Shown here piece after piece: positions 736 through 7,800 of a DNA stretch of 8,047 bases. The stretch lies in the IMG/VR virus record IMGVR_UViG_2531839580_000015; one strand, given 5' to 3'. This DNA comes from a virus. Its lineage: Duplodnaviria > Heunggongvirae > Uroviricota > Caudoviricetes. Both the position numbers and the translations under genes were made by a program. Below the pieces are notes generated by a model that was not told the DNA's origin, made no database searches, and was given only the letters and a program-made list of their open reading frames with translations. Position 1 is the first letter of the stretch. Every line of letters begins with the position of its first letter.

Positions 736-3700
736 ATGGGTAAAGGCAGCAGTAAGGGGCATACCCCGCGCGAAGCAAAGGACAACCTGAAGTCCACGCA
801 GTTGCTGAGTGTGATCGATGCCATCAGCGAAGGGCCGGTTGAAGGTCCGGTGGATGGATTAAAAAGCGTGCTGCTGAACAGTACACCGGTGCTGGACAGT
901 GAGGGGAATACTAACATCTCTGGTGTCACGGTGGTGTTCCGGGCAGGTGAGCAGGAACAGACACCGCCGGAGGGATTTGAATCATCAGGTTCCGAGACGG
1001 TACTGGGTACGGAAGTGAAATACGACACGCCGATTACCCGGACCATCACGTCGGCAAACATCGACCGTCTGCGCTTTACCTTCGGTGTGCAGGCACTGGT
1101 GGAAACCACCTCAAAGGGGGACCGGAATCCGTCGGAAGTCGCCTGCTGGTTCAGATACACGTAAGGTGGCTGGGTGACGGAAAAAGACATCACCATTAAG
1201 GGCAAAACCACTCCAGTATCTGGCCTCGGTGGTGGTGGATAACCTGCCGCCGCGCCCGTTTAATATCCGGATGCGCAGATGACGCCGGACAGCACCACAG
1301 ACCAGCTGCAGAACAAAACGCTCTGGTCGTCATACACCGAAATATCGATGTGAAACAGTGCTACCCGAACACGGCACTGGTCGGCGTGCAGGTGGACTCG
1401 GAGCAGTTCGGCAGCCAGCAGGTGAGCCGTAATTATCATCTGCGCGGGCGTATTCTGCAGGTGCCGTCGAACTATAACCCGCAGACGCGGCAATACAGCG
1501 GTATCTGGGACGGAACGTTTAAGCCAGCATACAGCAACAACATGGCCTGGTGTCTGTGGGATATGCTGACCCATCCGCGCTACGGCATGGGGAAACGTCT
1601 TGGTGCGGCAGATGTGGATAAATGGGCGCTGTATGTCATCGGCCAGTACTGCGACCAGTCGGTGCCGGACGGTTTTGGCGGCACGGAGCCGCGCATCACC
1701 TGTAATGCCTACCTGACCACGCAGCGTAAGGCGTGGGATGTGCTCAGTGATTTCTGCTCGGCGATGCGCTGTATGCCGGTATGGAACGGGCAGACGCTGA
1801 CGTTCGTGCAGGACCGACCATCAGATAAGGTGTGGACCTATAACCGCAGTAATGTGGTGATGCCGGATGATGGCGCGCCGTTCCGCTACAGCTTCAGCGC
1901 CCTGAAGGACCGCCATAATGCCGTTGAGGTGAACTGGATTGACCCGAACAACGGCTGGGAGACGGCGACAGAGCTTGTTGAAGATACGCAGGCCATTGCC
2001 CGTTACGGTCGTAACGTCACGAAGATGGATGCCTTTGGCTGTACCAGCCGGGGGCAGGCACACCGCGCCGGGCTGTGGCTGATTAAAACGGAACTGCTGG
2101 AAACGCAGACCGTGGACTTCAGCGTGGGTGCGAAGGGCTTCGCCATGTACCGGGGATGTCATTGAAATCTGCGATGATGACTATGCGGTATCGCACCGGG
2201 GGCGCGTGCTGGCGGTGAACAGCCAGACCCGGACGCTGACGCTCGACCGTGAAATCACGCTGCCATCTCCGGACCACGCTGATAAGCCTGGTTGACGGAG
2301 GGATCCGGTCAGCGTGGAGGTCAGTCCGTCACCGACGGCGTGAAGGTAAAGTGAGCCGTGTTCCTGACGGCGTTGCGATACAGCGTTGGGGGCTGAAGCT
2401 GCCGACGTGCGCCAGCGCCTGTTCCGCTGCGTGAGTATCCGTGAGAACGAGACGGCACGTATGCCATCACCGCCGTGCAGCATGTACCGGAAAAAGAGCC
2501 ATCGTGGATAACGGGGCGCACTTTGACGGCGACCAGAGCGGCACGGTGAATGGTGTCACGCCGCCGCGTGCAGCACTGACGCGAAGTCACCGCAGACAGC
2601 GGGGATATCAGGTCTGGCCGCTGGGAACGCCGAAGGTGGTGAAGGGCGTGAGTTCATGCTTCGCCTGACCGTGGCAGCGGATGACGGCAGTGAGCGGCTG
2701 GTCAGCACGGCCCGGACGACGGAAACCACTTACCGCTTCACACAACTGGCGCTGGGGAACTACAGGCTGACAGTCCGGGCAGTAAATGCGTGGGGGCAGC
2801 AGGGCGATCCGGCATCGGTATCGTTCCGGATTGCCGCACCGGCAGCGCCGTCGCAGATTGAGCTGACACCGGGGTATTTTCAGATAACCGCCACGCCGCA
2901 TCTTGCGGTTTATGACCCGACGGTACAGTTTGAGTTCTGGTTCTCGGAAAAGCGGATTGCGGATATCAGGCAGGTTGAAACCGCAGCCCGCTATCTTGGC
3001 TCGGCGCTGTACTGGATAGCTGCCAGTATCAATATCAAACCGGGCCATGATTATTACTTTTATATCCGCAGTGTGAACACCGTTGGCAAATCGGCATTCG
3101 TGGAGGCCGTCGGTCGGGCGAGCGATGATGCGGAAGGTTACCTGGATTTTTTCAAAGGCAAGATAACCGAATCCCATCTCGGCAAGGAGCTGCTGGAAAA
3201 AGTCGAGCTGACGGAGGATAACGCCAGCAGACTGGAGGAGTTTTCGAAAGAGTGGAAGGACGCCAACGATAAGTGGAATGCCATGTGGGCTGTCAAAATT
3301 GAGCAGACCAAAGACGGCAAACATTATGTCGCGGGTATTGGCCTCAGCATGGAGGACACGGAAGAAGGCAAGCTGAGCCAGTTCCTGGTTGCCGCTAACC
3401 GTATCGCGTTTATTGATCCGTCTAATGGCAACACAAGACCAATGTTTGTTGGTCAGGGCGATCAGATATTCATGAACGACGTGTTCCTGAAACGCCTGAC
3501 GGCTCCGACCATTACCAGCGGCGGTAATCCTCCGGCATTTTCCCTGACACCGGACGGGCGGCTGACGGCGAAAAATGCCGATATCAGCGGTAACGTGAAT
3601 GCGAACTCCGGGACGCTCAACAACGTCACGATTAACGAGAACTGTCGGGTTCTGGGAAAACTGTCCGCCAACCAGATTGAAGGCGATCTCGTTAAAACAG

Positions 3701-4095
3701 TGGGCAAAGCTTTCCCCCGGGACTCCCGTGCACCGGAACGGTGGCCATCAGGGACCATCACCGTCAGGGTTTATGACGATCAGCCGTTTGACCGGCAGAT
3801 TGTTATTCCGGCGGTGGCATTCAGCGGCGCTAAACATGAGAGGGAGAATAACGATATTTATTCGTCATGCCGCCTGATAGTACGGAAAAACGGTGCTGAA
3901 ATTTATAACCGTACCGCGCTGGATAATACGCTGATTTACAGTGGTGTTATTGATATGCCAGCTGGTCGCGGCCACATGACGCTGGAGTTTTCGGTGTCAT
4001 CATGGCTGGTAAATGACTGGTATCCCACAGCAAGTATCAGCGATTTGCTGGTTGTGGTGATGAAGAAAGCCACCGCAGGCATCAGTATCAGCTGA
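736..4095 (+). pseudogene. J: Tail tip host-specificity protein J (lambda gpJ family); reading frame broken into at least five segments
   Basis: ATG at 736 with GGAG at 724-727. The N-terminus MGKGSSKGHTPREAKDNLKSTQLLSVIDAISEGP... matches lambda J. The homologous reading continues through 736-1164, short pieces in alternating frames across 1165-1350 (in-frame TAA at 1162-1164, stops at 1240-1242, 1280-1282 and 1351-1353), 1350-2165, 2249-2434 and 2441-2668, then 2656-4095, which ends ...[10 protein letters not shown] with stop TGA at 4093-4095. Total span is 3360 nt against 3399 nt for lambda J. J-like peptides ([47 protein letters not shown]) are recoverable from different frames in 2165-2660. 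Confidence 0.85.
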
Positions 4096-4114
4096 ATTTT
4101 ATAACCCATATACG

Positions 4115-4138
4115 GGCGCCAGAAATGGCGCCTTTTTT
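4115..4138 (+). terminator. Rho-independent terminator downstream of J
   Basis: GGCGCC (4115-4120) and GGCGCC (4127-4132) form a 6-bp GC-only stem around the loop AGAAAT, immediately followed by TTTTTT (4133-4138). It starts 20 nt after the J stop. Confidence 0.7.
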
Positions 4139-4162
4139 ATTGCAGAAAAGCGAGAGGTAATT

Positions 4163-4759
4163 ATGCGTAAAGTTTGTGCAGCCATTTTGTCCGCAGCCAT
4201 CTGTCTGGCCGTATCCGGTGCGCCTGCATGGGCGTCTGAGCAGCAGGCCACACTGAGCGCAGGGTATCTTCATGCCCGTACGAACGCTCCCGGCAGCGAT
4301 AATCTGAACGGGATTAACGTGAAATACCGTTATGAGTTTACGGACACGCTGGGGCTGATTACGTCATTCAGTTATGCCAACGCTGAGATGAGCAAAAAAC
4401 GCATTACAGCGATACCCGCTGGCATGAGATTCCGTGCGTAACCGCTGGTTCAGCGTGATGGCGGGCCGTCTGTGCGCGTGAATGAATGGTTCAGCGCGTA
4501 TGCGATGGCGGGTGTGGCTTACAGCCGTGTGTCGACTTTCTCCGGGGATTATCTTCGCGTAACTGACAACAAGGGGAAAAAGCACGATGTGCTGACCGGA
4601 AGTGATGACGGTCGCCACAGCAACACGTCTCTGGCGTGGGGGGCTGGCGTGCAGTTTAACCCGACCGAATCCGTGGCCATTGATATTGCTTATGAAGGCT
4701 CCGGCAGTGGTGACTGGCGCACTGACGGTTTCATCGTGGGTGTCGGTTATAAATTCTGA
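4163..4759 (+). pseudogene. lom: Lom outer-membrane protein (Ail/Lom/OmpX/PagC beta-barrel family), prophage moron; frame interrupted mid-gene
   Basis: ATG at 4163 preceded by GAGAGG. The N-terminus MRKVCAAILSAAICLAVSGAPAWA is a typical signal peptide, and SEQQATLSAGYLHARTNAPGSDNLNGINVKYRYEFTDTLG... matches lambda Lom, as does the C-terminus ...AIDIAYEGSGSGDWRTDGFIVGVGYKF (stop TGA 4757-4759). Between about 4386 and 4462 the Lom-like reading moves through all three frames: DEQKTHYSDTRWHE in one, DSVRNRWFSVMA in another, then back to GPSVRVNEW. This leaves an in-frame TAA at 4439-4441. If the three shifts are sequencing errors the gene is intact. Confidence 0.8.
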
Positions 4760-4823: not shown

Positions 4824-7800
4824 ATGGCAGTAAAGATTTCAGGTGTACTGAAAGACGGCACAGGAAAACCGGTACAGAACTGCACAATCCAGCTGAAAGC
4901 AAAACGTAACAGCACCACGGTGGTGGTGAACACGCTGGCCTCAGAAAATCCGGATGAAGCCGGGCGTTACAGTATGGACGTTGAGTACGGTCAGTACAGC
5001 GTTATTCTGTTGGTGGAAGGATTCCCGCCGTCACATGCCGGGACCATCACCGTGTATGAAGATTCCCGACCCGGTACGCTGAATGATTTTCTCGGTGCCA
5101 TGACGGAGGATGATGCCCGTCCGGAGGCACTGCGCCGTTTTGAGCTGATGGTGGAAGAGGTGGCGCGTAACGCGTCCGTGGTGGCACAGAACACGGCAGC
5201 CGCAAAGAAGTCAGCCAGTGATGCCGGCACATCTGCCAGTGAGGCGGCAACCCATGCGACTGATGCTGCAGGCTCAGCACGCGCAGCCAGCACGTCAGCC
5301 GGACAGGCCGCGTCGTCGGCTCAGTCAGCATCTTCCAGCGCAGGAACGGCATCAACAAAGGCCAGTGAAGCATCGAAAAGTGCTGCTGCTGCAGAGTCCT
5401 CAAAAAGCGCGGCAGCTACCAGTGCCGCTGCGGCGAAAACGTCAGAAACGAATGCGGCAGCGTCACAACAATCAGCAGCCACTTCTGCATCCGCCGCGAC
5501 CACGAAGGCGTCAGAAGCAGCCACCTCAGCCCGGGATGCGGCGGCCTCAAAAGAGGCAGCGAAATCATCAGAAACGAACGCATCATCAAGCGCCAGTAGT
5601 GCCGCTTCCTCGGCAACGGCGGCAGGAAATTCCGCGAAGGCGGCAAAAACGTCCGAGACGAACGCCAGGTCTTCTGAAACGGCAGCGGGACAGAGTGCCT
5701 CAGCTGCGGCAGGCTCAAAAACAGCGGCTGCATCATCTGCCAGTGCCGCATCAACAAGTGCCGGGCAGGCCTCAGCCAGTGCCACCGCTGCCGGAAAGTC
5801 GGCAGAAAGTGCCGCATCGTCTGCTTCAACAGCCACAACGAAGGCTGGCGAAGCCACTGAACAGGCCAGCGCAGCAGCGAGGTCAGCTTCCGCAGCGAAG
5901 ACATCCGAAACGAACGCGAAAGCGTCGGAAACCCGTGCAGAATCCTCAAAAACGGCTGCCGCATCGTCAGCCAGTTCGGCGGCGTCATCGGCATCATCGG
6001 CGTCTGCTTCAAAAGATGAGGCGACCATACAGGCGTCAGCAGCGAAGGGCAGCGCCACGACGGCATCCACGAAGGCGACAGAGGCTGCTGGTAGTGCGAC
6101 GGCAGCAGCTCAGAGCAAAAGTACGGCGGAATCTGCAGCAACGCGCGCTGAGACAGCGGCAAAACGGGCAGAGGATATTGCATCCGCCGTGGCGCTTGAG
6201 GATGCGAGCACGACGAAAAAGGGGATAGTACAGCTCAGTAGTGCGACTAACAGCACGTCTGAAACGCTGGCGGCAACGCCAAAGGCAGTAAAATCAGCCT
6301 ATGACAATGCAGAGAAACGTCTGCAGAAAGACCAGAACGGCGCTGATATACCCGATAAGGGACGCTTCCTGAACAACATTAACGCGGTCAGTAAAACAGA
6401 CTTTGCTGATAAGCGTGGTATGCGTTATGTGCGGGTTAACGCTCCTGCAGGTGCAACATCTGGAAAATATTACCCTGTTGTTGTTATGCGTTCTGCTGGC
6501 TCAGTAAGCGAACTGGCATCAAGGGTCATTATCACCACGGCAACGCGAACCGCAGGCGATCCGATGAATAACTGCGAGTTTAACGGATTTGTTATGCCTG
6601 GTGGCTGGACTGACAGGGGGCGTTATGCTTATGGAATGTTCTGGCAATATCAAAACAATGAACGAGCCATCCACTCAATAATGATGAGTAATAAGGGCGA
6701 TGATTTGCGCTCTGTGTTCTATGTTGATGGCGCTGCTTTCCCTGTTTTTGCGTTTATCGAAGATGGCCTGTCAATATCCGCACCTGGTGCTGATCTCGTT
6801 GTTAATGATACGACCTATAAGTTTGGGGCAACAAATCCGGCGACTGAATGTATCGCGGCGGACGTTATCCTTGATTTTAAGAGTGGGCGTGGTTTTTATG
6901 AGTCTCATTCGTTAATCGTTAACGATAACTTGTCGTGCAAAAAACTTTTTGCCACAGACGAAATTGTAGCGCGTGGTGGTAATCAGATTCGAATGATAGG
7001 TGGGGAGTATGGGGCATTATGGCGTAATGATGGCGCTAAAACTTACCTGCTGCTTACCAATCAAGGTGATGTTTATGGTGGCTGGAATACATTAAGACCG
7101 TTTGCTATTGATAACGCAACCGGCGAACTGGTTATTGGAACCAAACTGTCTGCAAGTCTGAACGGTAACGCATTGACAGCAACAAAGCTGCAAACGCCAA
7201 GACGGGTTTCTGGGATTGAGTTTGATGGTTCCAGAGATATTACTTTAACCGCCGCGCATGTGGCTGCTTTTGCCAGAAGGGCAACGGATACATATGCCGA
7301 TGCGGATGGTGGCGTTCCCTGGAATGCCGAATCAGGCGCTTATAATGTCACCCGCTCTGGCGACAGCTATATTCTGGTTAACTTCTATACCGGAGTCGGA
7401 AGTTGCCGGACCTTGCAGATGAAGGCACATTACAGAAATGGAGGTCTGTTCTACCGTTCCTCAAGAGATGGCTATGGTTTTGAGGAAGACTGGGCAGAAG
7501 TTTATACCTCGAAAAATCTTCCACCAGAAAGCTACCCAGTCGGCGCACCAATCCCGTGGCCATCAGATACCGTTCCGTCTGGTTATGCCCTGATGCAGGG
7601 GCAGACTTTTAACAAATCTGCCTACCCGAAACTTGCAGCCGCTTATCCGTCAGGCGTGATCCCTGATATGCGTGGCTGGACGATTAAGGGCAAGCCCGCC
7701 AGTGGTCGTGCCGTATTGTCTCAGGAACAGGACGGCATAAAATCGCATACCCACAGCGCCAGCGCATCCAGTACTGATTTGGGGACGAAAACCACATCGT

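Follow-up and report, generated by a model that had tools for sequence, protein, structure and literature searches.

The stretch of DNA analyzed here (IMG/VR virus record IMGVR_UViG_2531839580_000015; 8047 bp, the window) is one whole contig, AQBV01000091.1, of draft assembly GCA_000358595.2. It carries distal tail genes from a lambdoid prophage, in the order K-I-J-lom-stf, J being the homolog of lambda gpJ, the tail-tip or central-fiber gene. We conclude that the 3' end of J (3620–4095) very probably carries an alternative, naturally occurring allele of the C-terminal receptor-binding domain, exchanged relative to lambda by homologous recombination, and that this allele would act by the mechanism outlined below. 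Observed directly are the breakpoints, the identity and predicted fold of the domain, the spread of the allele and its combination with different fiber shafts. Judged by sequence, the swap of a receptor-binding module is real, but the allele and this kind of exchange are already known; earlier publications describe the domain, its four variable loops and its exchange as a module. The J C-terminus sets the outer-membrane protein that a lambdoid phage needs and so governs how genes carried by prophages spread, among them those for Shiga toxin (Stx). It is also the part swapped by engineers to retarget lambda-based delivery particles.

A divergent receptor-binding domain at the end of J

The features of J and of the DNA just after it are these:

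736–4095, + strand: J, tail-tip or central-fiber gene, lambda gpJ homolog (three-frame translations; alignment to the gpJ of avian pathogenic Escherichia coli (APEC) E14033 and enterotoxigenic E. coli (ETEC) 602354; Pfam J domains in called genes)
2656–4095, + strand: sole intact open reading frame of J, 479 amino acids (aa), equivalent to lambda J 653–1132
3472–3620, + strand: conserved end of the central straight fiber (85–93% identity to lambda, 95–100% to ETEC 602354; sliding identity, alignment)
3620–4095, + strand: divergent receptor-binding ('specificity') module of J (breakpoint, 44% aa identity to lambda, PF12421, fold)
4114–4139, + strand: terminator-like hairpin (4114–4133) after the J stop codon, GGGCGCC-AGAAAT-GGCGCCT, then a T run; unlike lambda's

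The original prediction, made from the letters alone, had described J as close to lambda up to its last ~150 residues, and these as divergent, with only scattered anchors kept. All of this was borne out. The last 151 codons (3640–4092) match lambda J 981–1132 at 67 of 151 residues (44%), versus 311 of 328 (95%) for the preceding residues (2656–3639) against lambda J 653–980, a contrast with Fisher P = 1e-34; over the whole reading frame 378 of 479 residues are identical. High identity to lambda was thus absent from the final segment. The anchors FPR, WPSGT, DRQIV, DMPAGRG and GIS are all present there and conserved with respect to lambda J.

At the nucleotide (nt) level, the change is abrupt. 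Left of position 3620 the window shares 93.0% identity with lambda, right of it 55.4%, and the maximum chi-square at this breakpoint (289) was reached by 0 of 300 permutations. A second breakpoint lies near 4680 in lom (maximum chi-square 83.5), where identity to lambda lom changes from about 52% to 93% for the last ~80 nt. The terminator and most of lom also differ from lambda's. As read from these alignments, the block exchanged relative to lambda starts at ~3620 with the receptor-binding domain, continues through the terminator and covers most of lom, ending at ~4680, about 1.06 kb in all. The module had been placed at 3640–4095; its location in the J C-terminus stood, and its extent proved too short.

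The recombination junction is likely the conserved fiber end at 3472–3620. This stretch is common to all allele types compared, and its codon 3589–3591 corresponds to lambda aa 964. That residue is the fusion point for engineered gpJ chimeras, chosen as the 'last stretch of identity' (Brodel et al. 2024, PMC11338833).

The identity of the domain is clear from its profile match. Pfam PF12421 (Ig_GpJ_C; 'Tip attachment protein J, C-terminal receptor binding domain') matches 3700–4092 over profile positions 1–135 of 135, with E = 2.8e-40 and 138 bits against a cut-off of 26.2. The reading frame at 2656–4095 shows the domain order PF24421, PF24489, PF09327, PF12421, each above its cut-off, that is, fibronectin type III/immunoglobulin (Ig), fiber and receptor-binding domains. 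PF12421 sits at the extreme C-terminus of J, after the fiber domain PF09327, as in lambda.

The predicted fold agrees with this assignment. An AlphaFold model of 3580–4092 (predicted local distance difference test score, pLDDT, 81.6) forms an Ig-like beta-sandwich. Its best Foldseek matches in the Protein Data Bank (PDB) are the gpJ structures of A8 (9wca, 9wcb) and lambda (8xck, 8xcj), at E = 2e-19 to 4e-17 and template modeling (TM) scores of 0.71–0.74. The A8 entries match with E = 2e-19 and 64% identity, the lambda entries with E = 4e-18 and 49% identity. Entries 9wca and 8xck are the closed forms; 9wcb is A8 gpJ in its open form, bound to E. coli EDL933 OmpC, and 8xcj is open lambda gpJ bound to LamB. 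The OmpC chains in 9wcb were confirmed by a sequence search with K-12 OmpC. The structure prediction that had been proposed as a check therefore returned the receptor-binding domains of lambda and A8 gpJ.

We also aligned six allele types of the J receptor-binding domain. Four indel hot spots, at lambda residues 1012, 1048, 1077 and 1107, have been described (PMC6646904), and each has a counterpart in the window:

3721–3741, + strand: variable segment 1, DSRAPER (lambda residue-1012 hot spot); length as in lambda, with phi21 and A8 having 6 residues fewer; non-strand in the model
3823–3858, + strand: variable segment 2 (residue-1048 hot spot); length as in lambda, with phi21 and A8 having 5 residues more
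3907–3933, + strand: variable segment 3, NRTALDNTL (residue-1077 hot spot)
4000–4035, + strand: variable segment 4 (residue-1107 hot spot); lambda has one residue more

In the model, these four segments are alternate inter-strand loops, and the turns between them (DQPFD, NG, PAGRG) are conserved. This topology fits a domain with one end that would be variable and face the receptor and another that would be conserved and face the fiber.

Because the domain, its fold and its position are shared with lambda and A8 gpJ, we infer a similar mechanism for the window allele. The exchange would have its left junction in the conserved end of the central straight fiber and its right junction near the lom 3' end. 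Judging from the homologous lambda gpJ–LamB and A8 gpJ–OmpC complexes, three copies of the beta-sandwich domain would stand as a trimer at the fiber tip. The four variable distal loops would form the contact surface and insert into a trimeric outer-membrane porin. Binding would open the domain trimer, a twist would pass up the fiber, and the tail tube would open for DNA ejection. In lambda, the four bottom loops of the trimeric domain insert into the LamB trimer and the trimer of domains opens at its base; the fiber then gains hydrogen bonds, and an upward twist along it opens the tail tip (PMC11101478).

Spread of the allele and its combination with different shafts

The allele is widespread. 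Several ETEC and APEC chromosomes contain a 100% identical copy of its 456 nt. Of 5426 complete E. coli genomes, 3350 have related copies that cover the 456-nt query. Among phage records, 52 encode the allele with at least 95% aa identity. The carriers include several Stx2a and Stx1a phages. VT1-Sakai (Sp15), Stx2a_1447/WGPS2, the PPompW prophages, JLK-2012, 2G7b, PhiR55_1, PhiR5_1 and P-EibA have the same allele, with 95–98.7% aa identity over 151 residues. Yet the shafts of VT1-Sakai and the other phages of this group differ from that of the window, as do, in some, the downstream genes. A word-indexed protein search gave mostly gene fragments, from E. coli, E. albertii and Shigella; lambda- or 434-type relatives were absent from its results.

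Two chromosomes show the module on different shafts. ETEC 602354 has an identical module (from ~3440 to 4160) on another shaft, which differs strongly from that of the window at 3076–3411 and has an 84-nt insertion. In APEC E14033, the module is joined to a lambda-like shaft in an intact gpJ of 1131 aa, so the combination of shaft and domain seen in the window exists in a finished genome. That an identical domain stands on a different shaft shows modular exchange. Together with the sharp break at ~3620, the full-length PF12421 match and the lambda/A8 fold, the identical 456 nt on another shaft uphold the original claim of a swapped receptor-binding module.

These observations fit a published pattern. 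Among 1207 natural homologs, the specificity region of J (960–1132) is variable and contains the indel hot spots (Maddamsetti et al. 2018, PMC6646904). Its phylogeny conflicts with that of the rest of J, which was read as frequent recombination (PMC6646904). Natural C-termini have been functionally grafted at lambda aa 964 (PMC11338833). Host range has been exchanged via the J C-terminus since the lambda h434 hybrids (PMC11101478), and the same exchange now serves engineering (PMC11338833). The window allele, too, entered public phage records years ago.

The J copy in the window is itself broken. Compared with intact homologs, it lacks 1–4 bases at 28 sites, clustered at 1139–1343 and 2131–2652, and so is spread over at least three frames. 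The original prediction had set the C-terminal module against 'the rest of the gene'; the contrast in divergence held, and the assumption of an intact gene did not. J and lom together show 31 clustered small events, all of them deletions and none an insertion. Between 2100 and 2700, the best complete genomes are identical to the window save for 29 bases missing from it (601/630, 95.4%), and none of the best-matching complete E. coli genomes shares the deletions in this interval. Homopolymer (454-type) errors were rejected as the cause, as just 10 of 26 events had a homopolymer context. The deletions look like consensus errors from collapsed prophage repeats, not gene decay. Such errors fit the pattern, given a median of two related J copies per E. 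coli genome. The divergent module falls within the open part of J (2656–4095). With the window copy broken, the functional statement holds for intact J copies in finished genomes.

Several points weigh against the reading of 3620–4095 as an exchanged receptor-binding allele. The contig is a draft with clustered deletions, and its J may be a partial consensus of several prophage copies. The AlphaFold model is a monomer, and the trimer and receptor contact are extrapolated from 8xcj and 9wcb; confidence is low in the model's first 35 residues. The literature searched on lambdoid J receptors also gave no receptor assignment for this allele.

The shaft–domain junction could, for instance, be an assembly chimera of collapsed prophage J copies. 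The source is a whole draft contig whose 31 clustered deletions are seen in no complete genome, related copies number a median of two per E. coli genome, and blocks identical to lambda (3046–3350) alternate with blocks identical to ETEC 602354 (2746–3045, 3440–4160). Within 2746–3380, this alternation reflects either fine-scale natural mosaicism or the mixing of several J copies in the contig. Yet the complete genome of APEC E14033, the best match, aligns to the entire window in one piece at 96.4% and has the same shaft and domain in its intact gpJ. Moreover, about 1078 complete E. coli genomes cover ≥80% of the window in one place. A chimeric junction is therefore highly unlikely. Divergence in place, by point mutations under diversifying selection and without recombination, is scarcely credible. 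The specificity region does evolve fast at residues 1012 and 1107 (PMC6646904). But the drop in nucleotide identity to lambda, from 93% to 55%, falls at one breakpoint, and a few hundred bases upstream there are stretches that are 100% identical. The divergent block also extends past the J stop codon, across the terminator and on into lom, and the presence of the identical domain on another shaft likewise speaks against change in place.

Candidate receptors of the allele

The comparison with J proteins of known receptor, suggested as a check, found relatives; it did not yield a receptor that identity points to. Over the domain, the window allele shares 65% identity with phi21, 60% with A8, 44% with lambda and 41% with 434, and on these sequence comparisons it forms a class of its own. 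The highest value among alleles with a known receptor is that of phi21, which uses LamB. Its variable segments nonetheless differ from those of the window, with the same two indels as in the comparison with A8, and I1025 of phi21 is Leu in the window; the window allele is thus not of phage 21 type. The closest solved structure is A8 gpJ, whose domain equals that of phage 2H10 and was used in engineered lambda particles (PMC11338833). A phmmer search matched it with E = 2.8e-102 over 231 aa. The conserved framework is shared and the C-terminal strand is nearly identical. But all four variable segments differ in sequence, with indels of 6 and 5 residues in segments 1 and 2, so the window allele is not of A8/2H10 (OmpC) type; the OmpC use on record is that of A8.

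The lambda J domain (981–1132; LamB) has the same Pfam family, fold and position, with loops of equal length at 1012, 1048 and 1077. Yet at 44% aa and ~55% nt identity, and with all four variable segments unrelated in sequence, the window allele is not of lambda type. The J domain of 434 (h434; OmpC) belongs to the same family and holds the same modular position, and it provided the classical host-range exchange at the J C-terminus (PMC11101478). At 41% identity and with loops longer in 434 at three hot spots, this type differs from the window as well.

The original prediction had taken divergence from lambda as a sign of different specificity. This does not follow. LamB is the native receptor of lambda as well as of phi21 (PMC11336670), and yet their domains share just 46% identity, whereas phi21 and A8 are 82% identical and A8 gpJ uses OmpC (PMC11338833). 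Domain identity is thus a poor guide to the receptor. Phi21 J gains OmpC use through a single change, I1025T, which lies on the trimer axis (PMC11336670). The corresponding codon in the window (3688–3690) encodes Leu (EGDLVK); Leu is found in the Stx1a_2054 allele too.

The module may therefore have been swapped with the receptor unchanged, as LamB, and the divergence would then be drift or antigenic-type diversification. The low identity between the LamB-using domains of lambda and phi21 speaks for this, as do window loop lengths that are lambda-like at three of the four hot spots. But in sequence the loops have next to nothing in common with those of lambda or phi21, and the closest solved relative, A8, binds OmpC. 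Both prophage C-termini tested functionally, A8 and 1A2, also use OmpC (PMC11338833), 1A2 gpJ using EDL933 OmpC and not K-12 OmpC (PMC11338833). An unchanged LamB receptor is thus possible but doubtful.

For the exchanged allele, OmpC is our leading candidate, held tentatively; it ranks first because it is the receptor of A8, the closest solved relative, and of both natural prophage C-termini that Brodel et al. tested. LamB ranks second, as a less probable receptor, followed by another porin or outer-membrane protein, which we regard as rather unlikely. To our knowledge, every known coliphage receptor for this domain family is a trimeric porin. The four variable loops resemble those of no allele with a known receptor, and the allele might bind an outer-membrane protein that is new as a lambdoid J receptor (that is, not LamB, OmpC or OmpF); we consider this improbable.

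The allele is among the commonest in E. coli, and in the literature searched no receptor was assigned to it or to the phages that carry it (VT1-Sakai, Stx2a_1447/WGPS2, PPompW, JLK-2012, 2G7b, the PhiR phages and P-EibA). A 2026 receptor-prediction preprint treats Drexlerviridae-type GpJ, not lambdoid J alleles. The PhiR phages reportedly come from a 2025 study by Brenes and Laub. E. coli C, the recorded host of PhiR55_1 and PhiR5_1, has an intact ompC (376 aa); absence of OmpC from this host would have spoken against OmpC as the receptor, and the intact gene points neither way. K-12 is recorded as host for none of the six PhiR phages with a window-type domain, a count too small to carry weight.

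Base composition and neighboring genes

The module had also been described as lower in guanine-plus-cytosine (GC) content than the rest of J. The hand counts behind this were about right, with GC at 63.3% in 2701–2760 and 41.7% in 3841–3960, but both are extreme stretches. The module as a whole (3640–4092) has 51.4% GC versus 55.3% for 2656–3639 (lambda's own receptor-binding domain has 55.0%), and the lowest-GC 456-nt window of J begins at 3021 (50.0%), in DNA 98–100% identical to lambda. A GC profile was computed along the intact gpJ gene of E14033. The downward step there falls near codon 700, some 280 codons before the module begins, and values stay at 0.51–0.54 to the end. The final 151 codons give the lowest value only for GC at third codon positions (GC3; 0.55, bottom 1% of windows); for total GC they rank in the bottom 11%. 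GC is a weak marker and does not coincide with the swap. As a sign of foreign origin we rejected it, because the drop starts well upstream, in lambda-identical DNA.

A mosaic patch lies within the fiber domain at 3382–3471 (lambda J codons about 895–925), where the lambda letters DPANGNETPMFVAQGNQ differ in the window. Identity there is ~75% to lambda and to APEC E14033; ETEC 602354 is much closer (68–87%, and 98% just after the patch). The patch falls within the 902–933 segment reported as a trigger of the HepS abortive-infection nuclease (PMC13043305). The HepS trigger residue F924 (QIFMNDVF; PMC13043305) is retained in the window J.

The neighbors of J in the window are:

upstream of I: K, 3' end only
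34–675: I
4163–4759, + strand: lom, Ail/Lom outer-membrane protein, split in two by three one-base deletions at 4385–4462
4824 to the end of the window: side tail fiber gene (stf), start only

In stf, GC is 0.59–0.64 at 5100–6200 and falls to 0.43–0.50 at 6200–7200, and AT skew is strongly positive at 5300–6400. This fall in GC at 6200–7200 probably marks another module boundary.

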